From IMG/VR virus record IMGVR_UViG_3300035698_004821, positions 1 through 64,000 of that record: a stretch of DNA of 64,000 nt; one strand, given 5' to 3'. The position numbers and the translations under genes are program-made. This document shows, piece after piece, positions 18,954 through 37,159 of this stretch; the stretch's first letter is position 1, and every line of letters begins with the position of its first letter. The stretch comes from a virus. The notes under the pieces are model-generated. The model made no database searches and had not been told where the DNA came from. It saw only the letters and a list, made by a program, of their open reading frames with translations.

Positions 18954-20627
18954 ATGACTAATTACCTTCCTCGTGTTAATACAATACTAAATGATCAAGG
19001 TTTAAAGATTGCTCCGCCTCCTGCCGGTCCGAAAGTAACCCTTCTGGGAGTAACATCCAACCCGGATGTGCCTCTTCTGGAGCCGTTCACAGTAGGTTCA
19101 GTGGAGAAAGCAATCAACTCGCTTTACTTCGACTTAGGTGGAGAAGCTGGAGGGTGGCCTGCGACCACTTATCCTGGTGAACTAGCACTGGCTATTGAAG
19201 AAGCCATTGCTGCAGGTGCACCAAATATTGAAATCGTAGCTATTGGCTACTACAGTGGGGCTGACCTGCTGAACTATATTAAGCCGAATGCTATGCAATC
19301 GGGCAGGTACACGGACCTAGAAGAGGCCTACGAAGTCCTGCGTAATAGAACGCTTGACGTCGTTGTTCCGGTCGGAGCTTACATGGATGACAACATCTAT
19401 GATAGCGTATCTGGTGCAGCACTATCTTGGAACTTCGGAAAGCAGCTTGCTGACTTCTGTTTCCAAGCCACTTCAGAGGAAAACTCTTGCGTGGGTGTTA
19501 TACCTAACAGACCGATTCTAAGTTGGGCTATGCGCCATGCAGTAAACACCACGGGACATAACGCTGATGCTTACTTCCAAGAGTACAAGGATGGGCCTGG
19601 ACTAACGACAGATGCTACGCTACTTGCAGAGATGCAAAGCCTTTACGGAACCACATGGATCACAGGTGGTAACGACTCATCTGCCACTGAGATTCGTGAT
19701 GCTATAGCTTCTGTTGAGTACGGAACACCGTCTACTAGACTAATCAAGGAATGGCACGCCTACCATGCGTACCCAGAAACTGCTGGTAAGTTTAACTCTG
19801 CTGTATCAGGCCTTACCTATTACAACAGTGCGTACAACGCTTGGCAAAAGGGAGCTGCAGACCAAGATGGTAACATGCTAGGTGCTGTTACAGTGGATGG
19901 TGCTACAGCGGTTAACTCAGCTTACTTCGCTTCGTGGCAGGCAACTGACTCGGAAGATGCTGCTGCAGTAGACTCAAGAAATGGTAAGATTGACGCCGGC
20001 CAATACCTGAGTGTATTCACAACACCACTGAGAAGTGTTGGCACACAGACGTCGCAGAGAGCACTAGCTGTCGGAGCTTCGCTATCTAACACATCCCGTA
20101 ACACTGATGGAGCTGCAGCATACGCAGGTCTAATGACTAGTCTTGCCCCACAGTCTTCAACGACTAACAAGCAAGTTGGTGGAGTTGCGCAGCTCAAGCT
20201 GCTGTCAGCTAAGCAAGCTAATGACCTAGTCGGAATCAGACACGTCACCATGTACAGTAGAACAAGTGGTCTAACTGTTGCCTCTGGAGTAACGGGTGCC
20301 CACAGTGTAACTAGGTACGTTCGTTCTGACTACGTCAGACTAACGACTGTTAGAATTGTGCACGCTACAGTTGACCTAATTCGTTCGGTCGCTAACAAAT
20401 ACATTGGAGAGCCTAACAATGCTCCTCAGATGAATGCATTGGATGCAGAAATTGACCAAGTACTATTGAGCATGAAGGGGTCTGGCGCACTAAACGGCTA
20501 CAGCTTCTCTATCTCATCAACACCTGATCAAAGAGTACTAGGCATATTAGATATTAATCTAACTCTGGTACCAGCCTTCGAGATCACTACTATTAACCTA
20601 GTAGTCTCACTGTCGAAAGAACTATAA
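18954..20627 (+). CDS. Tail sheath protein
   Basis: N-terminal LPRVNTILNDQGL and C-terminal SDYVRLTTVRIV...YIGEPNN...LTLVPAFEITTI are sheath signatures. SD GGAG (18940-43). Confidence 0.9.
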   Translation: MTNYLPRVNTILNDQGLKIAPPPAGPKVTLLGVTSNPDVPLLEPFTVGSVEKAINSLYFDLGGEAGGWPATTYPGELALAIEEAIAAGAPNIEIVAIGYYSGADLLNYIKPNAMQSGRYTDLEEAYEVLRNRTLDVVVPVGAYMDDNIYDSVSGAALSWNFGKQLADFCFQATSEENSCVGVIPNRPILSWAMRHAVNTTGHNADAYFQEYKDGPGLTTDATLLAEMQSLYGTTWITGGNDSSATEIRDAIASVEYGTPSTRLIKEWHAYHAYPETAGKFNSAVSGLTYYNSAYNAWQKGAADQDGNMLGAVTVDGATAVNSAYFASWQATDSEDAAAVDSRNGKIDAGQYLSVFTTPLRSVGTQTSQRALAVGASLSNTSRNTDGAAAYAGLMTSLAPQSSTTNKQVGGVAQLKLLSAKQANDLVGIRHVTMYSRTSGLTVASGVTGAHSVTRYVRSDYVRLTTVRIVHATVDLIRSVANKYIGEPNNAPQMNALDAEIDQVLLSMKGSGALNGYSFSISSTPDQRVLGILDINLTLVPAFEITTINLVVSLSKEL

Positions 20628-20642
20628 TAATAGAGGTATATT

Positions 20643-21329
20643 ATGACAAATAAAGGTTTAGCACCATCAGGCGCAGGTAGATCGGCATCGTCATTCCAGA
20701 AAACGTACAACTCGTTCTCTGGGGTTGACATGGTCGTAACGTTTGGAGGTAAGATATTGGGTGAGCTACAAGGTATTTCGTACACCATTCAAAGAGAAAA
20801 GGCTCCCATCTACTCGATGGGCGAAGCTGATCCGAGATCTTTTTCAAGATCAAAGAGAGGTATCGCAGGGTCTATTGTCTTTGTAGTGTTCGACCGTTCA
20901 GCGCTTCTTGAAGCGATGAGGGACCGTCCTTACGTAGCCAACCGGTACTCGATACCAGAGGGTTTTGAAATTGCCGACGTCAATGTTGACACTATTGAAA
21001 TCGTACCTGGTGTCATCGGTCCTGCTGTAGGTTCAGCATCACCGACTGTATCTAGAATCGCTCTAGATAAGGTAATAGCTGCCCCGAACTACATTGACCA
21101 GGTCCTGCCTTTCGATGTTGTTATCACGGCATCTAACGAATATGGCGCTGTAGCCAGAATGATGATTCATGGAGTTGAAATTATGAACGTGGGCTCGTCC
21201 CTCTCGATTAACGACATCACCACTGATGAGGCATGCACCTACATTGCTACTGCGGTCACTCCTTGGAAGGACCAAGGCTTCATTAGAATTAACAACGATG
21301 GACGTTCAGCAACGTTTGTTGGTGGGTGA
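20643..21329 (+). CDS. Major tail tube protein
   Basis: Follows the sheath. SFSGVDM, REKAPIYSMG..PRSFSRSKRGIAGSIVF, DQVLPFDVVITASNEYG. SD GAGGT and a downstream terminator suggest high expression. Confidence 0.8.
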   Translation: MTNKGLAPSGAGRSASSFQKTYNSFSGVDMVVTFGGKILGELQGISYTIQREKAPIYSMGEADPRSFSRSKRGIAGSIVFVVFDRSALLEAMRDRPYVANRYSIPEGFEIADVNVDTIEIVPGVIGPAVGSASPTVSRIALDKVIAAPNYIDQVLPFDVVITASNEYGAVARMMIHGVEIMNVGSSLSINDITTDEACTYIATAVTPWKDQGFIRINNDGRSATFVGG

Positions 21330-21347: not shown

Positions 21348-21385
21348 GGGTCAGCTAGCTTTATCCCTAGTTGGCCCCCTTTTTT
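21348..21385 (+). terminator. Intrinsic terminator after the tube gene
   Basis: GGGTCAGCTAG pairs with CTAGTTGGCCC (11 bp with G-U pairs), followed by CC and T6. Confidence 0.8.
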
Positions 21386-21388
21386 ATC

Positions 21389-22123
21389 ATGGCTGACAAC
21401 GTTCAAAATCAAGTATTCGTCAACGGCAACGTGGCTAAGCTTTTAGGCCCCTCTTTAGGTCGCCAAGCAGCTTTCCAAAGTTATTCAGGCACAGACATAT
21501 CGGCCTTTATTTACTTGCCATTACTCGCTCAGAGTTCTATGAAGGGTAAAGCACCCAAAAAGTCAAAGCTTTTTGCTACACTGCAGACTATGTCTATCTC
21601 TAGTACTAGGTCTGTATCCCCCGTAAGAGTGTTCGGTCGCTCTAGTCCTCTCGCATATACTCGCGGAGCTAGAACAATAGCTGGTACTCTTGTCTTCGCA
21701 TCAGTTAACGAAGACGTATTCCAAGACATTTATGATGAAGGTATTGGTGAGAGCACAATGGCTGCTTCCTCTTCATTACTATCAGATCAACTTCCTCCTT
21801 TCAGCATTGTCATAACGGCAGCTAACGAGAAGGGTGGCGCAGCTATCCACGCTGTGCATGGTATCACCTTAGTTAACTATGGTACCACCTACAGTATTGA
21901 TGACCTCTACACTGAAGTGACGTATAGTTATGTAGCGACAGACGTTCTACCTCTAATGGCTAACGCAGTCTCCTTTGAAAGAGCCAAGAGAGAAGACGTC
22001 CCTATCAGTCCCGCCCTTGTTAATGTGTCTGATATTATCACAAAGAACATTAGCAAGGCATACGGAACTGAAGAGGACTATGTACGAGCCATACGTAAGA
22101 AGCTAGATCCCAACAATAGATAG
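21389..22123 (+). CDS. Tail tube paralogue 2 (likely start ATG 21389)
   Basis: SYSGTDI, RGARTIAGTLVF and DQLPPFSIVITAANEKG parallel the motifs of 20643..21329. The listed start at 21371 lies inside the terminator stem. Confidence 0.75.
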   Translation: MADNVQNQVFVNGNVAKLLGPSLGRQAAFQSYSGTDISAFIYLPLLAQSSMKGKAPKKSKLFATLQTMSISSTRSVSPVRVFGRSSPLAYTRGARTIAGTLVFASVNEDVFQDIYDEGIGESTMAASSSLLSDQLPPFSIVITAANEKGGAAIHAVHGITLVNYGTTYSIDDLYTEVTYSYVATDVLPLMANAVSFERAKREDVPISPALVNVSDIITKNISKAYGTEEDYVRAIRKKLDPNNR

Positions 22124-22141: not shown

Positions 22142-22864
22142 ATGACATACCTGTATCCCACAGCAAGTACTGTAGCCATCTTTCTCAATGGGTACCACAT
22201 AGAGCAGAGCTACCAGCTCCAGTACAAAGAGTCCGTCAACAAGGTCCCCATCTTTGGGTATAATGACCACTCGTATTCTAAGGTTGCTCTAGGCAGACAG
22301 ATGATACAAGGCGTACTGGTAGTTAACTTCCTCTTCGCTGGTTACCTCAATGCTATCATAGACACCATGTTTGACGAAGGGGGTGCCTACGTACCTAAAC
22401 TTTATAACTATGGCTTCTCTGAAAAAGGGGAGACACAGAAACAAAGGTTGGTAACAGGCATCAAAAATGAGATGCGTACTGAGTTACCACCCAACGCAGA
22501 TGCGGATACTCGCGCCGCAAGAGCCTCATACATCGCCTCCCTCTTGTCTAAGGACAAGAACACACGGGATGCCACTAAGGCTGCCTTGGAAAGCGCCTTT
22601 AACCCAGACGTTCAGAGTAATGGGGGTGCCATAACAAACCTACACAGCCCATTAACATCGAACAACCAAAGTATTACTCTAGATATTTATTATCAGGATC
22701 CAGAATATGCTACCTGGTTTACACGCTTTAAAAACGTAAACTTTTATGAAGTGAGTCAAGTAGCCTCTATGGCAGGAGCCGAAGGAAGTTCAGACCCCCT
22801 ATACGAAGTATATAGCTTTGTAGCTAGCGAAAAGATAATAAAACTAGTTAGTGAGAACACATAA
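22142..22864 (+). CDS. Tail tube paralogue 3 / tube initiator-like
   Basis: KVPIFGYN...ALGRQMIQGVLVVN and YEVYSFVA are distant versions of the tube motifs. Confidence 0.6.
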   Translation: MTYLYPTASTVAIFLNGYHIEQSYQLQYKESVNKVPIFGYNDHSYSKVALGRQMIQGVLVVNFLFAGYLNAIIDTMFDEGGAYVPKLYNYGFSEKGETQKQRLVTGIKNEMRTELPPNADADTRAARASYIASLLSKDKNTRDATKAALESAFNPDVQSNGGAITNLHSPLTSNNQSITLDIYYQDPEYATWFTRFKNVNFYEVSQVASMAGAEGSSDPLYEVYSFVASEKIIKLVSENT

Positions 22865-23289
22865 TGACAGACAAGAAAACAACATTACCTGTAGAAGTAC
22901 AGGCCTCAGTAGATACAGCTAAGGCAGAGGGACACGTAGTGTTCGCTGTTAAGTTAGCTGGCGTAAAGTACATATACAGAAGTATAAACAGAAAGGAGTT
23001 CAGAGAACTCCAAGGACTCATCGCCGACGAGGCTGAAAAAGCCAAAGCAGTAAATGATGCGGCTAAGCTAGGCCTAGCAGAAGGTGACCCTATGATGGCC
23101 TCTTTGGATACAAAGCTTGAGAAGCTAGCTATTGATATCAGAGAAAGCGGAGAAGAAAGGCTAGTCCAGAAGGGACTACTGCACCCATCCCTTTCCGAGA
23201 ACACACCCGCTGGTGTATCAACCACAATAGCTGACCGAATAATGGAAGCCAGTGCGTTTGGCTCAGAAGAAGAACCTGAAATGCTCTAG
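22864..23289 (+). CDS. Tail assembly chaperone 1
   Basis: YIYRSINRKEFREL...PAGVSTTIADRIMEASAF; position between the tubes and the tape-measure locus. Confidence 0.6.
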   Translation: MTDKKTTLPVEVQASVDTAKAEGHVVFAVKLAGVKYIYRSINRKEFRELQGLIADEAEKAKAVNDAAKLGLAEGDPMMASLDTKLEKLAIDIRESGEERLVQKGLLHPSLSENTPAGVSTTIADRIMEASAFGSEEEPEML

Positions 23290-26900: not shown

Positions 26901-28246
26901 ACTCAGGGACACCGGGTAAGTATAGTGATGTAGACAAATTCTTGATCCTATCTGATGTGGCACCATACTCCTCAGCGTACACCCAGTATGAGCAGAAGGT
27001 CAGAGACCTGAAGCTGGAAGGACGTTGGGGTAAGAAGGTAGAAGAAGCTATAGAGCACAGGCGACAATCTATAGGTGTAGACGACAGGTACAAGAGGTAT
27101 GAGGAAGAGATTATAGATCTAAACCTTAATATCTTGGCCGGTGCTGTGTACGAGCCTTTAAGGAAAGGCTATGATTTCTTAACCCATGATGTGCTTGCTG
27201 AGATACCGTACATAGGTTCTAAGCTATTCCCCTTCCGTAACCCTCACGAACAGTACCGTAAGACGCATGTCGAAGGGTCCGAGTACGCCTCCTGGGATAA
27301 ACCTTATGAAGGCATCATACGCCCTATGATATATGACACTGCATTGGAAGACCCTATCACAGCAGCCGGTAAAGGCGCTGTGCTGGGACTTCTAATATCA
27401 GGCCCCATGAAGTGGTTCTCCCCCTTAAAGTCCATCGTGAGCAACCCTGGGCACTCCTTCAACATGACTACCATGGCAGCGGGAGCAATAGGTGGTGCTG
27501 GACTAAGTACAGTGCGGATAGCTTCTGGCAATGACCAGAACATGTTGCCTAGCCACATTGAGGATGAGAGCGCAGCCATTGGCTACATGGACAAGATTGC
27601 TTACATCAAAGGGAGGGTGGAAGAGCAGGGAGGAGGCAGTAGTCTCCAGGCCAATAAGACTATGGTTGGAGCTAAGACAGTCATCAACTATAGGTCTGCT
27701 TTACCCAGGTCATCAGACAGAAGGTATTTTGACTACTTTGTTGGGCAAGAAAACGAAGATGTTAGATCGCAAATAATGGGAGGTCTCCCAAATTACATGC
27801 GGGAAGGCCTTAGTAAGACTTGGAATCAAGATTTTAATACGAGGCAGGAGTCTGATCAACAGATATTAGACTTCGTTAACACTAATGAGATTCCTGATCT
27901 TGGGTGGCAAGGATGGAGGCCTGAAGTCTCTGCTGCGGCCACTAAACTTAAGTTTGTACAGCATGGCATTAATGGTATATCTAATGATATACACAGATTC
28001 GGTTTCTTTGAGTCACACGAGATAGATATGAAGACAAGACTTAAAGAGTTCTCTAGTCAGAATATTAACTTCGTGCAGTCACCGATGCACTCAAGCTTTG
28101 ATTCCTTCCTCATGGGGCAGTCAAAGAGTATAGGAAAGTCTTCTTTCCGAATAGACTCCTTCTCCACACCTCAAGGTAGTCGCCGTGATATGACGGTGTA
28201 CGCTGATAAGGACAAAGAGCTTCTAGACCAAGTCAGGCGTAGATAA
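23906..28246 (+). CDS. Tape-measure-locus protein A (1446 aa; tape measure / DNA ejection protein)
   Basis: Directly follows the chaperones. Several Gly/Ala hydrophobic segments (FAAGLGVIGLGSYLL, LGAALGAGVTYAAIGG, AAGKGAVLGLLISG, AAGAIGGAGL). Confidence 0.6.
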   Translation: MTSDYINRQADQERQRSVDADQSKWVAPFAAGLGVIGLGSYLLKTRLTHGGEFVSNMFNFLGVPRGISLSSDAAANVGKSQARAGNSGLRSLLNSTYDINRNRLNIGPIDLIDDLRNSIQLIGNTDVSIGRHILERTTEYVNREMVANGPNTGFFTRDLDRVTFGQVLKDQKAWSKVLGDEQLSVIARAKELKVIGDDTLLDKRIFYNKGTNEILDLRLRNLTSKVVERKTGAGSVFERTGKFDMFGQANVLSSIFGVKGRGIALLGPGDGHAGSRVFIGGNTYRYQLNLATKSYDEVHIGANRTLRKSGSPLEVISASRDGRIELKTAPKKGLVGWMERNLGIGTSFSSRPTRIETVIINPYKRFRALQKGEAIIFSHPYKRHGKSSNMMDAVLGGEAPEISTLGSGHVRAGTGTSVKMSDISGRTWGFIPNRVAVIFGLLDDYSVIAKKNYKKYLSGAQDSISSSDFVVPLKTGGYKITGRTIPERSAANNLTDVVSDDLSAGGVPSKTNRYGYYDTKKVAGSSTLSGLRDAASYMLYRVNSLASETGLGISFAPSHKISTNLARLGGVAFAYEGLRQAGLYADYAVEKVTGFSPIKAVASAYAGTRIAQQKAREVTGIQQGAEFLDKYFPGSVNSEGSTLIRSILAPMFVASRFLKKANYLGAALGAGVTYAAIGGSEPGQETSELIREYSGDKKVAVRKGAFWGMGYTPFFGGEVDRYQAGWYAKLQSDYRNKSIYGSNDEYWKYHANVFGVPLPTPSNMFGLSNILNPYRMEDINRENRPYIQSSHPISNFPIIGPILGATLGELMKPTVFRTPDQLPLLKAGLAPAGLTPSTARMMGLSSMEATSPEAESPNTISNLIAKQANIATEPLGVYKFAMEFFGISTKPEMGREYATSATIGDPGRQLYDSSLAGAFGQTEFIRRFMLGDYSAQYRRAAAINPIKNSMPDWLPGAFSSTDADKAYFRDFTMGDPYSKIKDGEARLPGKGYEALNELHSGTPGKYSDVDKFLILSDVAPYSSAYTQYEQKVRDLKLEGRWGKKVEEAIEHRRQSIGVDDRYKRYEEEIIDLNLNILAGAVYEPLRKGYDFLTHDVLAEIPYIGSKLFPFRNPHEQYRKTHVEGSEYASWDKPYEGIIRPMIYDTALEDPITAAGKGAVLGLLISGPMKWFSPLKSIVSNPGHSFNMTTMAAGAIGGAGLSTVRIASGNDQNMLPSHIEDESAAIGYMDKIAYIKGRVEEQGGGSSLQANKTMVGAKTVINYRSALPRSSDRRYFDYFVGQENEDVRSQIMGGLPNYMREGLSKTWNQDFNTRQESDQQILDFVNTNEIPDLGWQGWRPEVSAAATKLKFVQHGINGISNDIHRFGFFESHEIDMKTRLKEFSSQNINFVQSPMHSSFDSFLMGQSKSIGKSSFRIDSFSTPQGSRRDMTVYADKDKELLDQVRRR

Positions 28247-31200
28247 TGAATAGTGATAACCCAGTTAATCGGCTGATTAATGAGACCTTAGGTTTAGGGT
28301 CTGCGCCTAAGTCTTTCTCTGATAAGATGGATGGGCTTCGCCGTGAGTTGAACCTGCCTGATGCTGAGTACATAGACTTGTTTAGAAAAGATCCTGGGCT
28401 CGAACAGCTTAGATCCTATTCTAGTAGTAGGCCGACCTATAGAGCCTCCGACCCTGACAACCTGCGCGCTATGTACAAAGGGCTGAGTGGTAGGGGTCTT
28501 ATCCCAAAAAGTGCCGAAGCAATCTTTAAGAAGGCCGGCTTAGCCGCCGGCGATAGCATCTACTACAACGGTGAGAATGCTTCTCTATTCTACAGATCAG
28601 GTAACGTAGTCACACCTCTTCCTGTAAGATCAGGTATGGGCGGAGTGCGATTTGGCAACGCCACTAGAAAAGCTAACTCACTAATGACAGGTGATGTAGT
28701 CACACCTTACATAGATGAATACTACAAAGGCATAGCAAGTTCTTCTAAACACTCCGTAGCGGAGGCAGTTAAGGAGTTCACTAGCTCAAGCAAGAATGTA
28801 CTTCTAACTCAAGGTGAGATCCCTCGGGCAGACCTATCCAATATCCTACTTGACGGTACGAGTGTTAAGGGTATCAATACACCTGAAGAAGCTTTTTGGA
28901 CTTCAAGACGATCTATCTTAGACATGCCATCTAACAAGGCTTTCCAAAAAAGCTTTAACCAGTTCCAACTATACTCAAGCTCTTTCTCTATGCTTGCTAA
29001 AACAGCTGGTCGAGTTATTAACCCCCAACTACAAGCCATAACCGGAAAGATAGATCACAGAGAAGCATTTAAAGTCTTGGAAGGGTATAAAAAGAACTAC
29101 ATCAGTTCACTGAGCGCTATGTTATTAGCCAGTGATGCGCCCTCTTCTTTTGTGTTCACTAAGCCTGGATTTTTAGGGCACGAAGAAGGGAAGTTTCTAA
29201 TAAGTTCTCCGCAGCTAACTAAGATGTTCGGCGGTGACTTAGAGAAACACACCTTAGACAAGGGTCTTTTTCAACTAGCTAAGCTTAAGCACACAGACAG
29301 TGGTCTAGCGCGAAGCCTTATAGAGGAGGGCATAGACCCAACTGCGCCGTATGTGATAGCGGGTGAAAGTCGTGGGCAAACGTTAGCTAGACTAAAGCTG
29401 AAAGTAGGTATTGTTGATACAGCTAATGATGCTGTATCTCGTTTACTATTCCAAGAAGGCGGAGCTATACTTGGTAAGCCGGGCATAGCTATGTTTGCAC
29501 AGAATGCACCTATGGGTGATCTGTCCTTCTCTTCACCTTCTGAGAAACTCATAACCTCAGTAGAAGATGTCTTTGGTATTAACCTGGGAGCAGGCAATGT
29601 ACAGACCTTCGACTGGAGCCCAACTACCCAATTAGGCAAAGCAAAAACTGAAGACTTAAAGAGAATACTTAAAGCTAGTGGAAATCAGAGAGGCTTGGCT
29701 AGGCTACTGGCTGTGACAGACAACAGGCTAGCCAAAGTAGAGCTAACTGACTCAACCCTTAAGCTGAGCTTCGTCACCCCTAATAGGGTGACTCCTGCCA
29801 CCTCTGAAATTAACATAGCGGCCCGTAGATTCGCCGCCACTAAGCTCAATGACTTTAACAAACTAGCTAACTCTGGCATCCCCGAAGACCTATTAGAGAG
29901 TGTTCATGTTTGGCATGGTGCCGATGAGTATCTTAAGAACCATGGTCCTGATGTCTTTATCACCAACTTCATAGAAAAGGTAAAAGGCAGAGACGACGCC
30001 GAAGTAATATTCCGTAAAGCTTTTGGACACGCAGCTAACATATCTATAAATGGTAAAACCAGAATGGTTGTGCCCGAGATTACCAGTGTAGATCACGCTT
30101 ACCGTAACTCTAAGTTACTCGTCCTACGGATGCTCAGAGGAGGCACAGATGAAGAGAAGACGCTAGCCGCAACGATACTAAAGGGAAACAAGGTAGTTAC
30201 AGATAAGATGCTCAAGTCTGGCATCACGGGTGTCACTGTAATTGGTATGGGTGGCGCGTCTAGAACTGACTTCATGGGTGATATCAATATGATGAACCCT
30301 GTGACTATCTCTCCAACTAAGATGACCCACATAGCTGCTGGTGCAAGGCAGCTAGGCTATGACCATCTGTACCAAGACCCAATGTACAGTCTCTTGGCTG
30401 GATCTAATAAATCATGGAATAGTGGGGATATACGTGTACTAGCCGGATCAGGTCAGCTCCATATTAGTGACAAGCATATAATGTCCAGGTACGCTAAAGC
30501 TTTATATGCTAAACCAGGACACATAGATCCGTCGGCTATAGTTACGCTTAACAAGGGCGGAGGCTTTTCAATAGGGGGTAAACCACTTAGAGCACTACCT
30601 ACTGACTTTAACGATTTTTCACATGCTAAAGGTGTTGATTTTAGCCGATTAGAAGGTACCATTTTAGGCCAAAAGCAGGACATGTTGTATCTTGACCTAG
30701 GCAAAGAAAGGCAACTAGATCTTTTGGGCTCAGGTAAAAAAAGTTACAGATACTTGCCTATACCTTTAGACTACCTAAGAGTTAAAGAAGGGTTACATAA
30801 CAGACTAATAATTGGCAAAAAGAACCCAACACGAGGTATTGTCCAGTCACTAGTAGACATAGACTCTAATAGAGACTTTTATAAGGATGTTTTAGCTGAG
30901 CTAGAAAATACAGAGTCAAAATTAGGCCGTCAAATGAGCCAAGGCTTCTTTAGCCTTAACAAATCTATAGCGGGTAAAGAAGGTATTTTCCAAAAAAGCA
31001 ACACTATCCTTATGCCATTAGGCGCAAGAACTAGATTGACCCCACAATCGGGTAGTTTCTTTGACATGGCATCTTTAGATGATGCCAGTAAACTATACAC
31101 CAGTGTTATGTCTTCTTCAGATTTTGAAGACTACTTAGCTAGAAAGAGCGGAACAGGGAAAGGAGTCCAAAAGCAGATAAGCAAGATCAAAGAGCTGGTT

Positions 31201-32766
31201 AAGAAGCAGGGTCACTTCTACGCCATGGTATCTGTAGACCCCATGCAGAGAGCAGAGCACGCTAACCTGATGCGAATTCGAGTGGATCCTACTATACCTG
31301 GCTCTGCAAAGATAGGTCAGCTTAACATGGCCCAGCACCCGTTCTGGTATTTATTGTCGGAAAGAGACACAGACAGAGATGCTGCGTCTATAGTCCCTCT
31401 ATCTGGTATGAGTAATACAGGGCTAACAGACGAACAAATAAACTCTCTGCTAGAAGATAGATGGTTGAGACAGCAAAAGCTATCTAAGCACTTTATGTGG
31501 TTTTACAAGCACCAGCTACTGACGGGTAGCGTGGCGTCTGCTGAAGATAGATTCTCTCTTTTAAAGAAAGGTCTAGTTAAGGCTAAGAACGCTATTAACC
31601 ACATACCTACATACTTAGGTATTTCTGAGTCACTTGGTTACTCTACAGTGCGTGCCTCAGAAGACATAATGAGTAACCTCATAGCCTATGATGTGCGTGG
31701 CGCAAGACTAGCTGGCGTCAAACACTCAACAGCGTCAGATGAAATGCTGAAACTTATACGCGCTCCCTACGCTAATGACAAGGTAAGAGCTGAAATAGCT
31801 AGAAAAGCATACCAAAACATATACCAGTCACCTGTTGTTAAAGCTGGAAAAGACCTTCTAGGTGCGTTTGACGCGGCGCTCATAGACATTGGACACAAGT
31901 ACAAGGGTACTGCCTTCGACTATGACAAAGTAGTAAGTGAAACTGCAGACGCTTTCTACGATCTTTTAGCCGGATCAGGTAAGGTTAGATCATTCACAGA
32001 AACGGAATACCTATACAACAACTTCCCAAAGGTAAAGTCCTCTATGGACCTCATGAAGGCAGACCTAGAGAGAGGTGCTGAGTACGCTAAAGAGAGTGGT
32101 AAAAAAGCCAAAGAACAAATCTTCAGAGCAACCTCTCAGCTGATGGGAGAAATGCTAGGTGGAGGCCAAGTTCTCGCTGCATCACAAAGCATGCCTAAAG
32201 GTGTCAACAGTATTATACAGTCAATAATGAGACCTGAAACAACTCAAGCAGTTGTTGAGTCTAATGTTTTGAGACCAGCTCTTGGTCTTGAAGAGAAAAA
32301 CAAAAATAGCCAAAAAGTGGTAGGTGCGCTTCAAGACACGGGTGGAAGAATGCCGATAACCGATGGCGATGCTAGTGAGTCAATGATGTCTAAGGCGACT
32401 AAGTACTTCAACTCATCTAAGGGTAGAACTTTTGGTGCAGGTATTGGCATCGGCGCCTTGGTAGGCGCTGGTATAGTATCTAGCATGTCTGGCCCTGAAG
32501 CACCAATGCCAAGAGACGTCGATGGACGTCAACCTACAGACCGTGCACCCGACGTGTACAGCACGCCACCAAGAATATATGGTAACCACCAGAGTTTCTC
32601 CGCTTCAAAGCAGGGATCTCCAACGGCAATACCTAACATAGGGGCTTATCAGTTCCCGAGTTTTGGTAATTCATCAATAACTATAAGGGACAGATCAAGT
32701 TCCAGCAACCCCCGTATGATCGAGAGACATATGAGAGATATATCTAACAGCGATTACACATACTAA
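28246..32766 (+). CDS. Tape-measure-locus protein B (1506 aa): single-chain two-barrel (DPBB) RNA-polymerase-like protein
   Basis: Beta'-like motifs in order: IAGKEGIF (908-915), GARTRLTP (926-933), MVSVDP, HPFWYLLSERDTDRDAASIVPL (1031-1052). Weaker beta-like motifs upstream: KVGIV..FQEGGAIL, KLSFVTPNRVTPATSEINIAARR, VHVWHGADEYLK. C-terminal Gly-rich hydrophobic helix. Confidence 0.7.
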   Translation: MNSDNPVNRLINETLGLGSAPKSFSDKMDGLRRELNLPDAEYIDLFRKDPGLEQLRSYSSSRPTYRASDPDNLRAMYKGLSGRGLIPKSAEAIFKKAGLAAGDSIYYNGENASLFYRSGNVVTPLPVRSGMGGVRFGNATRKANSLMTGDVVTPYIDEYYKGIASSSKHSVAEAVKEFTSSSKNVLLTQGEIPRADLSNILLDGTSVKGINTPEEAFWTSRRSILDMPSNKAFQKSFNQFQLYSSSFSMLAKTAGRVINPQLQAITGKIDHREAFKVLEGYKKNYISSLSAMLLASDAPSSFVFTKPGFLGHEEGKFLISSPQLTKMFGGDLEKHTLDKGLFQLAKLKHTDSGLARSLIEEGIDPTAPYVIAGESRGQTLARLKLKVGIVDTANDAVSRLLFQEGGAILGKPGIAMFAQNAPMGDLSFSSPSEKLITSVEDVFGINLGAGNVQTFDWSPTTQLGKAKTEDLKRILKASGNQRGLARLLAVTDNRLAKVELTDSTLKLSFVTPNRVTPATSEINIAARRFAATKLNDFNKLANSGIPEDLLESVHVWHGADEYLKNHGPDVFITNFIEKVKGRDDAEVIFRKAFGHAANISINGKTRMVVPEITSVDHAYRNSKLLVLRMLRGGTDEEKTLAATILKGNKVVTDKMLKSGITGVTVIGMGGASRTDFMGDINMMNPVTISPTKMTHIAAGARQLGYDHLYQDPMYSLLAGSNKSWNSGDIRVLAGSGQLHISDKHIMSRYAKALYAKPGHIDPSAIVTLNKGGGFSIGGKPLRALPTDFNDFSHAKGVDFSRLEGTILGQKQDMLYLDLGKERQLDLLGSGKKSYRYLPIPLDYLRVKEGLHNRLIIGKKNPTRGIVQSLVDIDSNRDFYKDVLAELENTESKLGRQMSQGFFSLNKSIAGKEGIFQKSNTILMPLGARTRLTPQSGSFFDMASLDDASKLYTSVMSSSDFEDYLARKSGTGKGVQKQISKIKELVKKQGHFYAMVSVDPMQRAEHANLMRIRVDPTIPGSAKIGQLNMAQHPFWYLLSERDTDRDAASIVPLSGMSNTGLTDEQINSLLEDRWLRQQKLSKHFMWFYKHQLLTGSVASAEDRFSLLKKGLVKAKNAINHIPTYLGISESLGYSTVRASEDIMSNLIAYDVRGARLAGVKHSTASDEMLKLIRAPYANDKVRAEIARKAYQNIYQSPVVKAGKDLLGAFDAALIDIGHKYKGTAFDYDKVVSETADAFYDLLAGSGKVRSFTETEYLYNNFPKVKSSMDLMKADLERGAEYAKESGKKAKEQIFRATSQLMGEMLGGGQVLAASQSMPKGVNSIIQSIMRPETTQAVVESNVLRPALGLEEKNKNSQKVVGALQDTGGRMPITDGDASESMMSKATKYFNSSKGRTFGAGIGIGALVGAGIVSSMSGPEAPMPRDVDGRQPTDRAPDVYSTPPRIYGNHQSFSASKQGSPTAIPNIGAYQFPSFGNSSITIRDRSSSSNPRMIERHMRDISNSDYTY

Positions 32767-32767
32767 C

Positions 32768-35700
32768 ATGACAACCACAACATTAACTAACTATGCAAGC
32801 GCATATGCAGTAGGCCGCCAGCATGTTCACTTTGACTGCAGGGCGAGCACACCAACTACTGGTTTAATGAGTGATCGAGATGCCCAAGGATATTGGAGGG
32901 TTATTCGCGCAGGATCAATTATTAAACGTGAAAATGGTATATTAGACTTTGCTTGGCTTGGTCTAGACGGAGACATCGTACAATGCATGGCTGTCGATAG
33001 TGCTGGCAACAAAGGGGAGTTTGTATCTTACACTTATAGTGTTGCTGCGAACACTGCCGCTGATGTTGTTTACTACGTCAACTCAGCAACGGGTAATGAC
33101 TCTACTGGTGATGGCTCAAGTGGCCTACCTTGGGCTACTCCAGGTAAAGCTGCTACTGAGATGGCCTCGGCCTTAGGTGGCACTGAATCAGGTGTTATCT
33201 TTATCTCAGGCAGTAACACATACGTGATTACTGGATCCTTATGGGGTGGTGGTGATGCACTAACCCGTCAGGTTAGGTTTATATGGGATGGGACTGGTAC
33301 GAAGCCGACTCTTAGCTTCTCGAATAATGCTACAGGATTTATCACTGGTAAGCGTGAGTCGCCACATATTGAAGGCTTTATATTAGATGGTGACGCGGTA
33401 GACGGAACTGCTAATAGTTACTGCGTTACCTTTAACCGTGATGGCGGAGTCGCAGCTGATCGATCGGCCTACAACATCATGTTGGTCAATTGTGACCTGC
33501 GGAACTTTTCAAACCATATTGAAGGTAATGAGGTAACCGTAGGGTCATCGGACCGATCATCTGGCTGTTTTGACTTTGTCGCTCTTGAAAACTGCACACT
33601 AGCGGGTATTCACGGAGCATCTCCAGGTGCCCAGTACTACCTTTACTCTTGGAAGTACGTAGAGAAGTGGTTACTTAACAACGTCTCATTCGGTGCTGCG
33701 GTTAGTTTCAACTCAGGTATAAGACTACTACAGACAGGTAGAGGTTATACCTCTGATGTTGTAGAAGACTACGGAATCAAAAGAACCCGATTCACTATCG
33801 CTCCAGGAGTAGGTAACGAGACTAAACTTCAGTCTCACGTTCGATGGACTAAGTATGCTGGAGATGGAGATGATGTCATAGGTTACGAGACTGATGCGTC
33901 TAACGTTGGCATTAGTTACGTTGAAGATATTCGATACTACGACTGTAGGCTACTGGATTCAAGAATATCTTTTAGAGCTAATGAAGGAGCAGTTCTAAAT
34001 GGTGTTAATGTCACTAGGTTTGACATTATCAATACAGTATCTAAAGGCTACCATATTGGTAGGACTGCTGCTGTAGGTCACTCCATTAGCTCCATCAGGT
34101 GGAGGGATTGTGCAGTAATCAGAGACTACCAAAATGGCGCATTCATCACTATAGATGGTGTAGCCGATGGTCTAGAGACTGACTCCTTACTGTTCAACGG
34201 CTGCTACGTTTATTGGCGGATGACTAATGGCTTTGAAGGTGGTGGTGTATTCTACTCTGCGTTCAATGCACTAAGAGCCACGATCGCTGCGGCAGTTCAC
34301 GGTGACTCTGATAATAACCATACTGCTAAAGTAAACTCTACTTTCCTGCGGTGGGCTTCTCACTCAGATGATTCTGGGGAATCTGACTTAACTCAATGGC
34401 AAGCTGTATCTGACGCTGACGACTCTTCAGATACACATAATAGTACTACACTATTCTTAACTAATAATGGTGCATCTGACTTTAGAGATACTGATGTCAC
34501 ACTAACTAGTGGAGCAGGACCATTAAATAATGTTGGATCTCCCTTAGCTCTTGGCGTTGCTATTGACTCAGCAGGTAAGTTAAGAAGTGCCTCTACCCCT
34601 GATGCAGGACCCTATGAGTTTGGAGCTACGGATCTACCCGACGACCCACTACCCGACGACCCACTATCCCCTCTATTAACTACGAGTTCCATGCCTGTTG
34701 TTACAGTCGAGGTACAGTCCCCACCGGTGACGCCTTTGCCCCTAGTATCAGCAGGCTCTATACCTGCTGTAACAGCGAACATCGCTACATCTACAGAAGT
34801 AGTGGTTGGTTCTCCTCTTATATCCACAGTTAGCCTACCAGTAGTGGTTGGTTCTCCGCTTATACCCACGGCTATCCCACCCCTTTCTAGTGTAAGTAGC
34901 CTACCAACTGTAAGTGTTGCTTCCGTTGATCACTTTCAAATTGACACAGCTGGACCAGGAATGGAAAGCTGGAGATCTACAAAATTCTCGGCTACAGTTA
35001 ATGGTGATACAGCCTACGTCTATGCACATACTAGAGAGACACAGTTTTCGTGTTCAGTTTGGGACGCAGGGGTTGATGTTGAGCAGTCCGTGCTTAGGTA
35101 TGGCGCTAGTGAAGCAACGACAGTAACCATTAGTCTTGCGGATGCCACTGCAATTACGTCTGCTATAGTCTACCCAAAAAACTTAGGTGTTACCCAGGTA
35201 ATTTCAATGGGAGTCTTGACATTGACCGTGCCTGCGAATGTCAGACTACGGGTTGAGGTTAATGGGGACCGTGCCGAAGTACTGTCTTTACTCGCCAACC
35301 CGCTTACTTCTACTCCTACCTCAGTAGTTGACTACACAACTCTAGCAAAAGCTATTGACTCTGTGAGTACTACTGCAGACGGGTATATAACTATTACGGC
35401 GCATGGTTGGACTGGGTTTTTACGCGGTCTTATGACTACGCCAGATGAGTTACCAACACCTACCGAAGGTACAATAGGGGCTTATGAAGCAGTTCTTCTT
35501 TTGGTCATTGATGAAAATACTGTTGTAATTTTAGACGATAATTACGTCCCAAGGACATTTAGCGCATCAGGTAGTGATGTGTTTATGTCTCCAGCCCAAT
35601 GGACTGATACGGTTAACACACTGTTAATACCCGCCGGTCAGCATAACATAGGTGCTCAGTTTACCCTGGGTGATAACGTAAGCGTCTACCTTGAAAAAGG

Positions 35701-37159
35701 GGCTGTAGCCCTAGGGTCATTTCAAATGAACTGCACTAATGCAAGGGTACATGGTCCTGGCGTTTTAGCAGGAACTCACGTTGATTCTCTGGTTGGCTGG
35801 AACTCGGGGGACTTTAATGTAAAAGTAGTTACATCTATGTTTTACAGGGCCCCCACTAGTTCTGATGATCACTCTAATACTATTGAAGATATCACAGTGT
35901 TGGGTAGCCCTTTCTTTTTAAACTTTTTAGGTGTAAAGAAGTTTAAAAATGTGGCACATATATCTCCCTGGAATTACTCAACAGATGGTTTTGCTCCTCA
36001 GACTATAACAAGTAACGAAAGTGATATAAGTGAGATCATAGATTGTTACGCTCTTTGTGGCGATGACGCGTTACGAATAAGTATAAGAGAACGTAGCTGT
36101 GAAACTTCAGGCACCTTTGTTACCACTACAAACAATTCATGCATTAGCAGTGACACTAGGGTGCATTTTATTAATGAAAATAGGTATAGCAAGACTACAG
36201 ACACGCACTTAATGCATTTAGGAAAAGCGGATAGTGTCGGGGGTAATATAGCCTCTAAAACAATAATTAAGTTATTGACCGACGGTCGCGATAACACACC
36301 ACCCTTTGGTCACTTCAACTACACTTTTGAACGGATCAATGTATGGGGACCAATAGAGTCTAGGCTTTTTTGGTTGGGTAGTTTAGCTAACCCGTTTCAG
36401 GTTAGTAGAGGTTTGCATGGTGTGGTGCAAAACGTACTCTTTAAAGACTTTACTGTAGAAGCAGTCCCTGGTCAAATCTCATCTATCACATCTAAGGATG
36501 CCACTAACACACCCTCTAATATTACTTTTGAAGAACTATCTATAGGCGGCCAAAAAATATTTAGTGATAACCGGCATTCTTATGTGTCCGTGTCGGGTCT
36601 TGCATATGATATAGTCTGGGACATTCGGCCTGGCACAATACTTCTTGATCCTTCTGAGGTGCACAGCATCTCGTCTATTAATCTTCTTTATGCTGGTGAT
36701 GTACCGGCCATACTTGTAAGTAATAGTGAATCAGTAGCGACTACATCAGCTGGGCAAGGAGGCTTAACAGAGGTTATAGCTTTTGATCTACACCTAAAGG
36801 TAGGTCAAGCAACAGCCTCTGGAACTAATGAGCCCATTGATCCACCAAGAGATCCACCGACCGAGCTACCCGTATTTAGCATATCCGTTCCCTCCTCTAC
36901 TCCCAGCTTAGAGCAGGCTGTGGCTATACGGGATGAAGTGGTGCTGCCTATACTGCTAGAGCTTGATAAAATTGATAACAATATTGCTAAAGCATCCACT
37001 AATAGCAAGGTGGTGTGGTCGCAAAGTGTATTAGATCGTATAGAGGTTCCTGCTGTGTCACGGACCATAATTAAAATTAAAGCTGCCAACTACAGTAAGT
37101 TCACCCGAAGGGTGGACAGTCCTGTCGTAAGAGCGTCCACACCTAGACGAAGATTCTAA
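32768..37159 (+). CDS. 1463-aa tailspike/depolymerase with two beta-helix-type domains
   Basis: Domain 1 runs from YYVNSATGNDSTGDGSSGLPWAT to PDAGPYE (pectate-lyase-fold signature). After a linker, domain 2 has VYLEKGAV, GPGVLAG, WNYSTDG and GDDALRI (GH28/GH49-like). Confidence 0.7.
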   Translation: MTTTTLTNYASAYAVGRQHVHFDCRASTPTTGLMSDRDAQGYWRVIRAGSIIKRENGILDFAWLGLDGDIVQCMAVDSAGNKGEFVSYTYSVAANTAADVVYYVNSATGNDSTGDGSSGLPWATPGKAATEMASALGGTESGVIFISGSNTYVITGSLWGGGDALTRQVRFIWDGTGTKPTLSFSNNATGFITGKRESPHIEGFILDGDAVDGTANSYCVTFNRDGGVAADRSAYNIMLVNCDLRNFSNHIEGNEVTVGSSDRSSGCFDFVALENCTLAGIHGASPGAQYYLYSWKYVEKWLLNNVSFGAAVSFNSGIRLLQTGRGYTSDVVEDYGIKRTRFTIAPGVGNETKLQSHVRWTKYAGDGDDVIGYETDASNVGISYVEDIRYYDCRLLDSRISFRANEGAVLNGVNVTRFDIINTVSKGYHIGRTAAVGHSISSIRWRDCAVIRDYQNGAFITIDGVADGLETDSLLFNGCYVYWRMTNGFEGGGVFYSAFNALRATIAAAVHGDSDNNHTAKVNSTFLRWASHSDDSGESDLTQWQAVSDADDSSDTHNSTTLFLTNNGASDFRDTDVTLTSGAGPLNNVGSPLALGVAIDSAGKLRSASTPDAGPYEFGATDLPDDPLPDDPLSPLLTTSSMPVVTVEVQSPPVTPLPLVSAGSIPAVTANIATSTEVVVGSPLISTVSLPVVVGSPLIPTAIPPLSSVSSLPTVSVASVDHFQIDTAGPGMESWRSTKFSATVNGDTAYVYAHTRETQFSCSVWDAGVDVEQSVLRYGASEATTVTISLADATAITSAIVYPKNLGVTQVISMGVLTLTVPANVRLRVEVNGDRAEVLSLLANPLTSTPTSVVDYTTLAKAIDSVSTTADGYITITAHGWTGFLRGLMTTPDELPTPTEGTIGAYEAVLLLVIDENTVVILDDNYVPRTFSASGSDVFMSPAQWTDTVNTLLIPAGQHNIGAQFTLGDNVSVYLEKGAVALGSFQMNCTNARVHGPGVLAGTHVDSLVGWNSGDFNVKVVTSMFYRAPTSSDDHSNTIEDITVLGSPFFLNFLGVKKFKNVAHISPWNYSTDGFAPQTITSNESDISEIIDCYALCGDDALRISIRERSCETSGTFVTTTNNSCISSDTRVHFINENRYSKTTDTHLMHLGKADSVGGNIASKTIIKLLTDGRDNTPPFGHFNYTFERINVWGPIESRLFWLGSLANPFQVSRGLHGVVQNVLFKDFTVEAVPGQISSITSKDATNTPSNITFEELSIGGQKIFSDNRHSYVSVSGLAYDIVWDIRPGTILLDPSEVHSISSINLLYAGDVPAILVSNSESVATTSAGQGGLTEVIAFDLHLKVGQATASGTNEPIDPPRDPPTELPVFSISVPSSTPSLEQAVAIRDEVVLPILLELDKIDNNIAKASTNSKVVWSQSVLDRIEVPAVSRTIIKIKAANYSKFTRRVDSPVVRASTPRRRF
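34634..34666 (+). repeat. 15-bp tandem duplication (LPDDP x2)
   Basis: CTACCCGACGACCCA repeated exactly at 34634 and 34649. Confidence 0.9.
34798..34870 (+). repeat. 42-bp-period direct repeat (VVVGSPLI x2)
   Basis: AGTAGTGGTTGGTTCTCC at 34798 and 34840, with near-identical continuation. Confidence 0.85.

Follow-up and report, generated by a model that had tools for sequence, protein, structure and literature searches.

The DNA analyzed here (the window) is a stretch of 64,000 nucleotides, positions 1 to 64,000 of the IMG/VR record IMGVR_UViG_3300035698_004821, which is a 93-kb fragment of an uncultured marine virus (~48% complete) and contains structural genes only. The genes are arranged in the order terminase, portal, capsid, sheath (18954-20627), two tube paralogs, chaperonin-like genes, giant open reading frames (ORFs), and baseplate genes. 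The four giant ORFs encode, in this order, proteins of 1446, 1506, 1463, and 2042 residues and are followed by P2 W/J-like baseplate genes. In this work, we found that the second giant ORF (P0001), which occupies the tape-measure slot among the tail genes, very probably encodes a homolog of the two-barrel polymerases, judging from its predicted structure. The gene is closely packed with its neighbors: its ATG overlaps the stop codon of the upstream 1446-residue ORF (TAATG at 28244-28248), in keeping with the translational coupling proposed in a previous reading of this DNA without database searches (the sequence-only reading), and 1 nucleotide separates its stop codon from the start of the next ORF. 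The 1506-residue protein contains no cysteine, and neither does the upstream 1446-residue protein (hereafter the gp145-like giant, after its homolog in Bacillus phage 0305phi8-36).

An AlphaFold2 model of residues 331-1330 (model residues 1-1000), built from a 57-sequence alignment without templates, reached a predicted local distance difference test (pLDDT) score of 90.6 and a predicted template modeling (pTM) score of 0.89. When this model was compared with PDB by Foldseek, the top-50 matches were all beta' chains of RNA polymerase (RNAP) with probabilities of 0.9-1.0 and marginal E-values of ~2e-3. An exhaustive search by VIA-align (VIA) found 367 chains at Z-scores of at least 8, and all 50 chains listed were RNA polymerases. 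The two parts of the model have different neighbors. Model residues 1-350 (protein residues 331-680) matched second-largest subunits (Z 10-10.9, ~250-280 residues aligned), namely, vaccinia Rpo132 (Z 10.3-10.9), the beta subunit of the AR9 non-virion RNAP (Z 10.1-10.3; Z 9.5-10.3 for the non-virion beta subunits of AR9 and phiKZ), and the second subunits of Pol I/II/III/IV/V (Z ~10); archaeal B and bacterial beta also matched. Model residues 395-1000 matched Pol IV NRPD1 (Z 11.4, 388 residues aligned), Pol II Rpb1 (Z 8.6), and Mycobacterium tuberculosis beta' (Z 7.2). Within this part, model residues 590-753 matched the barrel of the archaeal RNAP A' subunit (2pmz_A; Z 8.3, root-mean-square deviation [rmsd] 2.5 Å over 111 residues), as well as designed double-psi beta-barrel (DPBB) proteins and AAA N-domains at Z 5-6.8. 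As one body, the whole model was best superposed on the single-chain QDE-1 (Z 10.0-10.7, 342-369 residues aligned, rmsd 4.1-5.3), and weaker matches were P74 gp62 (Z 7.9), RDR2 (Z 7.6), P23-45 gp96 (8h2n_A, Z 6.5; 8h2m_A, Z 6.3), and phi14:2 gp66 (PDB 6VR4; Z 5.2, 359 residues aligned).

The predicted catalytic core has the organization that characterizes the two-barrel superfamily, with two DPBBs of which the beta-like one (DPBB-B) precedes the beta'-like one (DPBB-A), and with a DxDxD loop in the beta'-like barrel that is conserved in the family. The aspartates D1041, D1043, and D1045 fall within the range of DPBB-A, the barrel that carries the catalytic triad in RNAPs. A 32-residue helix after DPBB-A (1062-1093 in the secondary structure of the model) is a candidate for the bridge helix, and a helical region behind the barrel is conserved (G1131, Y1132, R1136, Q1190, Q1194, and K1199); the alignments to largest subunits extend to the end of the model. 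In or beside the beta-like module, K339, R528, R673, and K692 are candidates for the basic active-site residues of the beta barrel. The sequence-only reading had proposed a fusion of beta and beta' of the crAss gp66/YonO kind, and the order of the two modules, the invariant DxDxD, and the AlphaFold2, Foldseek, and VIA results all support a single-chain two-barrel polymerase of the QDE-1/YonO/gp66 kind; it could have failed on the number of barrels or on the conservation of the loop, and both barrels were present in the model and the loop was conserved in the alignment. PolD DP2, which may yet be related, was not among the structural matches listed. When the model was compared with viral structures in BFVD, Foldseek found a metagenomic "Minor tail protein" (E = 1e-10), a fragment of an Acinetobacter phage ME3 protein (E = 3e-7), a Microcystis phage MaMV-DC protein (E = 6e-6), and fragments of crAss-like RNAPs (E = 4e-4). 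The label of the first of these, together with the "hypothetical" given by the databases, is what the sequence-only reading had anticipated in suggesting that annotation would name the product a tape measure or a hypothetical protein.

The family is present in metagenomes. We found 14 full-length homologs (33-100% identity) and 49 cluster representatives among 1.84 billion proteins, nearly all of which have 1450-1940 residues. The 57 aligned sequences share 18-77% identity with the query, and their mean column identity is 19%. Only R930, P999, R1040, D1041, D1043, D1045, Q1194, and K1199 are invariant among them. The next tier of conservation includes K339, G340, G406, R528, R673, D675, D679, N681, and K692 in the N-terminal half and G913, D998, Q1001, R1002, E1004, H1005, E1039, Q1076, G1131, Y1132, and R1136 in later parts of the protein. 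Among these, K339, G340, G406, R528, and R673, together with G647, are invariant or nearly so within the beta/Rpb2-like module, and D675, D679, N681, and K692 lie at its end or directly after it. A lone DxDxD is not beyond chance (~0.3 expected in 1506 residues with 6% Asp); the invariance of this motif across 57 homologs with such a low mean column identity is. The pattern of invariance, as judged from the alignment, is the one expected of an active site that has been maintained.

The ORF and the motifs on which the sequence-only reading was built are present at the places that it gave, namely, SIAGKEGIFQ..MPLGARTRLTP (S907-P933), AMVSVDPMQR (residues 993-1002), and HPFWYLLSERDTDRDAASIVPL (H1031-L1052 at 31336-31401), the last of which contains D1041, D1043, and D1045. 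The three aspartates, singled out there for comparison among homologs, proved invariant in 57 of 57. Other details are less general in the family. In the GKEG motif, G913 is nearly invariant and K911 is usually K or R, while E912 is variable; the HP before DxDxD is frequent in homologs without being fixed; and the trailing VPL varies freely. The three beta-like motifs proposed upstream are located inside the part that is predicted to fold like the beta/Rpb2 barrel region, and their residue-by-residue equivalence stays a candidate.

Searches at the sequence level found no relative among known proteins. No family was assigned to the polymerase-like protein by Pfam or PHROG scans (at E <= 1, Pfam returned only one spurious methyltransferase row), no match was found by tblastn against 50,697 phage records, and a profile search of PDB sequences returned no relative, only spurious PPR rows. 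The best hhalign match to Escherichia coli beta' placed the HP...DxDxD segment on residues 446-471 (NADFDGD; E = 0.08, not significant), and that to 0305phi8-36 orf99 again involved the Asp loop without being significant. Comparison of the family profile with 0305phi8-36 gp146 was non-significant as well. A family hidden Markov model (HMM) found nothing in the genomes of ME3, MaMV-DC, and P23-45 or in the slot proteins of ME3 and 0305phi8-36. Longer fused forms of the family (2637-5000 residues) were sought and none was found, which is weak evidence. The features of the gene and its neighbors are listed in Table 1.

Table 1. Coordinates of the polymerase-like gene, its predicted parts and motifs, and neighboring genes in the window.
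Feature	Position	Strand	Basis or remarks
Polymerase-like ORF P0001, 1506 aa	28246..32766	+	Tape-measure slot of tail module; ORF listing and translation
N-terminal region, residues 1-330	28246..29235	+	D4 N5 P6 conserved; N5 and P6 invariant
Predicted beta/Rpb2-like module with first double-psi barrel (DPBB-B), residues 331-680	29236..30285	+	VIA structure matches; conservation
Predicted beta'/Rpb1-like part (connector, DPBB-A, and following helical region), residues 725-1330	30418..32235	+	VIA; Foldseek; secondary structure
Predicted second double-psi barrel (DPBB-A), residues 920-1083	31003..31494	+	VIA (model 590-753)
G-K-x-G ... G-x-R-x-R-L motif, residues 907-933	30964..31044	+	R930 invariant; G913 and L931 nearly invariant
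DP-x-QR-x-EH motif, residues 998-1005	31237..31260	+	P999 invariant; D998, Q1001, R1002, E1004, and H1005 nearly invariant
E-R-D-x-D-x-D loop of metal-binding type, residues 1039-1045	31360..31380	+	R1040, D1041, D1043, and D1045 invariant in 57/57 homologs
Gly-rich hydrophobic segment FGAGIGIGALVGAGIVSSM, residues 1396-1414	32431..32487	+	Single; candidate membrane-inserting helix
Pro-rich conserved C-terminal tail, residues 1419-1506	32500..32766	+	P1420, P1422, R1423, D1432, P1435 ... S1502, D1503, Y1504, Y1506
Tail-chaperonin-like gene	22864..23289	+	Weak similarity to 0305phi8-36 gp143/gp144 and ME3_33; marks the tape-measure neighborhood
gp145-like giant, 1446 aa	23906..28246	+	Homolog of 0305phi8-36 gp145 / ME3_35 virion structural protein; BLAST
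Baseplate-hub-like giant with lysin domain, 2042 aa	37159..43287	+	Homolog of 0305phi8-36 gp147 / ME3_37; closes the slot

Among cultured phages, the closest are Bacillus phage 0305phi8-36 and the Bacillus phages related to it (WH1, Edson, and KLEB27-3), together with Acinetobacter phage ME3 and Moorella phage MTATph1, and by sequence the virus belongs to the 0305phi8-36/ME3 lineage. According to pairwise BLAST, the window gene at 22142 is the counterpart of 0305phi8-36 gp142. The order sheath, tube, chaperonin, gp145-like gene, polymerase gene, and hub is conserved in two related metagenomic loci in which the polymerase-like protein has 31% and 26% identity; the former locus belongs to G001, a complete relative of 189.7 kb that has terminal repeats. 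The gp145-like gene always precedes the polymerase gene. Because the flanking genes are homologous to gp145 and the hub gene gp147, the polymerase gene occupies the slot of 0305phi8-36 orf146, which was assigned as the tape measure (Hardies et al., 2007). The sequence-only reading had placed the gene between a tape measure and the baseplate; the upstream giant is instead a homolog of the virion protein gp145/ME3_35, for which a tape-measure role is not supported, and it is the polymerase gene itself that lies in the orf146 slot. In the GenBank record of 0305phi8-36, both gp145 and gp146 are noted as found in virions by mass spectrometry. Since gp146 has neither a DxDxD nor detectable similarity to the polymerase-like protein, this virion evidence can be transferred by position only.

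The same slot in cultured relatives is filled by different proteins. In ME3, the protein between the gp145-like gene and the hub is ME3_36 (1603 residues, "hypothetical," L014:14430-19241), which carries the RNAP-type motif EPAQG...DHDQD at residue 1217 and, to judge from its length, is probably the ME3 protein found in BFVD. In KLEB27-3, the slot contains gp034 (2434 residues, "structural protein," L028:14652-21956) with NRYPT...ADYDGD, likewise of RNAP type, at residue 1933. Neither of these two proteins has detectable sequence similarity to the polymerase family described here. The DxDxD loop is absent from 0305phi8-36 gp146 and MTATph1 CDS0027, and therefore the slot does not contain a polymerase in every case. 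A Gly/Ala-rich hydrophobic stretch located ~100 residues from the C-terminus is found in both the polymerase-like protein and gp146, and the ends of the two proteins are vaguely similar; the alignments are not significant, such that this is a lead only. By eye, ME3_36 has a similar C-terminal stretch, which falls below the hydropathy cut-off used.

To our knowledge, virion delivery of two-barrel RNAPs has been shown only for a few phages, namely, phi14:2, P23-45, and jumbo phages of the phiKZ/AR9 type, in which the enzymes are multisubunit. The closest functional precedent for the protein described here is P23-45 gp96, a virion two-barrel RNAP that is fused to the tape measure and transcribes pre-early genes (Chaban et al., 2024; PMC10770324). 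The ejection of gp96 and its coupling to a membrane or pore were put forward as hypotheses by those authors, and the gp96-type group is also found in P74-26, G20c, and TSP4 (PMC10770324). The two proteins share a single-chain two-barrel architecture (predicted in our case), a DxDxD loop, a segment of membrane type, and a history of being overlooked by annotation; as with gp96, the position of our gene is that of the tape measure in a tail operon, according to synteny with 0305phi8-36, ME3, and two metagenomic relatives. They differ in other respects. P23-45 is a siphovirus, and the polymerase makes up the N-terminal 1100-1200 of the 5002 residues of gp96, followed by a long ruler part and a metallopeptidase, with a loop that reads DFDGD. 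In contrast, the phage studied here has a contractile tail, and its protein has 1506 residues with only ~175 after the polymerase core, a single hydrophobic segment among them, and a DTDRD loop. A long tape-measure continuation with membrane and metallopeptidase domains was not found, nor was a peptidase or any other Pfam domain. Neither hhalign against gp96 residues 1-1200 nor the family HMM against the P23-45 genome gave anything meaningful.

Based on the model, the closest structural relative is Neurospora QDE-1, the best whole-chain match, in which both barrels are aligned together. The QDE-1/RDR family, YonO of SPbeta, and 0305phi8-36 orf99 have the same order of a beta-like and then a beta'-like barrel. 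These enzymes are soluble and non-virion, have ~800-1400 residues, and are encoded outside structural modules, whereas our gene lies within one; their family profile PF05183 did not match the polymerase-like protein. The resemblance to phi14:2 gp66, a virion-packaged RNAP, lies in the single-chain two-barrel architecture (predicted for our protein), in the location within a block of genes for giant virion proteins, and possibly in packaging. The structural match to gp66 is weak, and that protein differs in belonging to a podovirus-like crassvirus, in its length (2180 residues), in being capsid cargo, in lacking sequence similarity, and in its gene neighborhood. With classical tape measures (lambda gpH, T4 gp29, and 0305phi8-36 orf146), the protein shares a gene position downstream of the chaperonins and upstream of the hub, a hydrophobic segment close to the C-terminus, and conservation of the C-terminal end. 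Classical tape measures are extended helical rulers, whereas two thirds of our protein form a predicted compact polymerase fold, with residues 331-1330 modeled as an alpha/beta core, and no similarity to orf146 was found. In the literature consulted, a tape-measure-associated polymerase is described only for the P23-45 group. Iyer et al. (2021) reported only orf99-type enzymes for 0305phi8-36 and nothing of the kind for ME3. The supplements of Chaban et al. that were consulted do not mention ME3, MaMV-DC, or 0305phi8-36.

Other polymerases were sought in the complete relative G001. Profiles of multisubunit RNAPs (PF00623 and PF00562) and of the RdRP/YonO family (PF05183) did not match this genome. 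A scan with PF00940 (T7-type) also found none and is uninformative, as this profile had no match in the control genomes either. A second member of the polymerase family was sought in the relative and not found. PF05183 does find orf99, a QDE-1-like gene that 0305phi8-36 carries in its right arm besides the gene for the slot protein (PMC2147016), and has no match in G000 or G001. As no other RNAP family matched, the slot protein is the only recognizable RNAP candidate in G001 and in the marine clade, where a very diverged second enzyme is possible. G001 encodes a class II ribonucleotide reductase, a DnaG-DnaB primase-helicase fusion, and a DNA polymerase of family A; with the latter two, it does not depend on the polymerase-like protein as a replicase. 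Further products of this genome are a Ro60/TROVE-vWA protein and a nicotinamide phosphoribosyltransferase (L022:233-1822 and L022:7674-9113). Near its end, a 1221-residue ORF with a chance DxDxD was considered and set aside; it has no relationship to orf99 and has a repeat-rich, fiber-like appearance.

Some members of the family contain an additional domain. An N-terminal DEDDh exonuclease of RNase_T/DnaQ type (PF00929; best E = 8e-19) was identified in nine of 20 longer or more distant members (P0025, P0027, P0029, P0033, P0035, P0039, P0042, P0054, and P0055; N-terminal residues 60-410). Its motifs (DxE / D / HxxxxD) are intact and read FDLETTG, GYNxxxFDxPxL, and GAHxAxxD. The domain is inserted after the conserved N-terminal DNP motif and is absent from the protein encoded in the window. 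We know of no earlier description of an exonuclease fused to a two-barrel RNAP, and these relatives represent a new architecture for the two-barrel polymerase superfamily.

With the predicted fold and the invariant motifs in hand, we consider it quite likely that the polymerase-like protein is catalytically active. From the position of its gene and from precedent, delivery with the virion may be expected with modest confidence. The explanation that we favor, and regard on balance as probable, is that the gene product is a single-chain polymerase of the two-barrel type, most likely a DNA-dependent RNAP, that is built into the virion, injected, and used for pre-early transcription. The polymerase would be expressed together with the tail genes and incorporated into the particle, where it would lie in the tail lumen or be docked to the hub as an ejection protein. 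At infection, it would leave the particle with the DNA, and the C-terminal helix could hold it at the membrane. The ejected enzyme would then transcribe the pre-early genes, the first of the phage to be expressed, without relying on the host polymerase. A more far-reaching version, which we put forward as speculative and rather unlikely in its entirety, is an injected transcription machine shared by the whole lineage. In this version, the phage tail would hold the polymerase in an unfolded or partly folded state, with the conserved C-terminal tail of the protein docked to the hub. Upon contraction, the polymerase would be threaded through the tube and would refold at the inner membrane with the Gly-rich helix as an anchor, where it would transcribe, and perhaps pull in, the genome. 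The DEDDh domain of some relatives would then serve proofreading or clearing, and the gp145-like giant would be an obligate partner.

Several observations weigh against the favored explanation. A folded core of 1000 residues cannot lie folded inside a tail tube, which is a constraint on how it would be stored and ejected. A long helical part that could act as a ruler is missing from the protein, and nothing else in the locus was recognized as an obvious tape measure. Sequence similarity to known RNAP families was not significant in Pfam, PDB profile, and hhalign comparisons (E = 0.08-0.19 for hhalign against P23-45 gp96, E. coli beta', and 0305phi8-36 orf99). The metal loop reads ERDTDRD rather than NADFDGD, gp146 in the same slot of 0305phi8-36 is unrelated by sequence and has no such loop, and the DEDDh exonuclease of some relatives could point to a different nucleic-acid transaction.

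These points leave room for other explanations. The gene may encode an active two-barrel RNAP that stays outside the virion, is co-transcribed with the late genes, and serves late or middle transcription in the cell, as do P23-45 gp64 and YonO. The fold and motif evidence is equal for this alternative and for a packaged enzyme; packaging is argued from position and precedent, and the non-virion enzymes QDE-1 and P74 gp62 are among the best whole-chain structural matches. We nevertheless hold it to be improbable, because an enzyme made only with the late structural genes would come too late for middle or late transcription of the same cycle, and because the place of the gene between a virion protein and the hub is fixed in relatives with as little as 26% identity. 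Moreover, the conserved extreme termini and the C-terminal hydrophobic segment are unlike those of soluble non-virion RNAPs, and the product of the same slot in 0305phi8-36 is in virions. Slightly less probable still is a different reaction, in which the protein would be a primase, a DNA or repair polymerase similar to PolD DP2, or an RNA-templated polymerase that acts in genome-end processing or the start of replication. All strong structural neighbors are RNA polymerases, PolD is missing from the matches listed, and G001 already has replication enzymes of its own; a DEDDh 3'-5' exonuclease is a typical partner of proofreading polymerases, yet it occurs in nine of 20 distant relatives and not in the window's protein. 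The non-canonical catalytic loop would fit such a reaction, as would QDE-1 being the best whole-chain match, an enzyme that uses both RNA and DNA templates (PMC9508822).

Loss of catalysis is a further alternative, in which the protein would be a structural tail or ejection component of polymerase descent, such as a tape measure or channel former. The tape-measure slot, the C-terminal hydrophobic segment and conserved tail resembling those of the slot proteins of ME3 and 0305phi8-36, the departure of the loop from DFDGD, and the lack of DxDxD in gp146 and MTATph1 CDS0027 are all compatible with it. We consider this quite improbable given that invariance is limited to the three Asp, the Arg next to them, and a few core residues of basic or polar character, which is the pattern of an active site and not of a scaffold. 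The least credible explanation is that the resemblance to polymerases is an artifact of structure prediction and the true fold is unrelated. It could draw on the Foldseek E-value of only ~2e-3 against PDB and on sequence-level tests that are all non-significant. However, the template-free model is highly confident, its two parts match two RNAP subunits in the correct order, the whole of it matches QDE-1 as a rigid body, and the independently conserved DxDxD falls in the proper barrel, all of which make an artifact very improbable.

If the favored explanation is correct, virion RNAPs associated with the tape measure would extend to contractile-tailed phages. The family spans an abundant uncultured marine lineage with genomes of ~190 kb (~50 clusters at 50% identity), and host-independent early transcription would be much more widespread than is apparent from annotation. 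A mechanical question also arises, namely, how a 1000-residue enzyme passes through, or with, a contractile tail. The cultured phages with motif-bearing slot proteins, ME3 and KLEB27-3, make the idea directly testable.

The neighboring giant proteins have features of their own. The gp145-like giant is more conserved than the polymerase, with ~55% identity across dozens of metagenomic homologs and many invariant Gly, Pro, Arg, Tyr, and Trp residues between residues 517 and 1380. An AlphaFold2 model of its residues 331-1446 (pLDDT 80, pTM 0.77) is compact and mostly helical, and no fold neighbor was found (best Foldseek E = 0.4, best VIA Z = 4.7). With the modeling, we asked whether this protein could be a second polymerase, another kind of enzyme, or a tape measure, and it provided no fold neighbor supporting any of these. 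Two of its homologs (P0083 and P0098) carry a LAGLIDADG insertion (PF14528) of intein type.

The 1463-residue ORF (32768-37159, + strand) is located between the polymerase gene and the hub gene and has no counterpart in 0305phi8-36 or ME3; the gene at this position in G001 encodes 1022 residues. Protein-atlas look-ups of two neighbors of the polymerase gave sub-threshold leads only, and those for this ORF (0.85-0.86, below trust) point weakly to right-handed beta-helix and pectate-lyase-like proteins. A short repeat (VVVGSPLI...) is present around residues 676-703. The 2042-residue hub-like protein has a lysin-type domain at residues 1655-1838 (phrog_20474; E = 2e-33) and hydrophobic segments at residues 576-594 and 1862-1885.

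Directly after the major capsid gene lies a further ORF of 1446 residues (10050-14390, + strand) without an assigned family, which has the same length as the gp145-like giant and is unrelated to it by BLAST. Two paralogous genes of ~230-250 residues after the sheath gene (20643-21329 and 21371-22123, both on the + strand) match phrog_9206, "major head protein." In gene order, they correspond to the tail tube genes gp140/gp141 of 0305phi8-36 and to ME3_30/31. The label of phrog_9206, which is also used in the record of MTATph1, seems to have been given to tail tube proteins by mistake.

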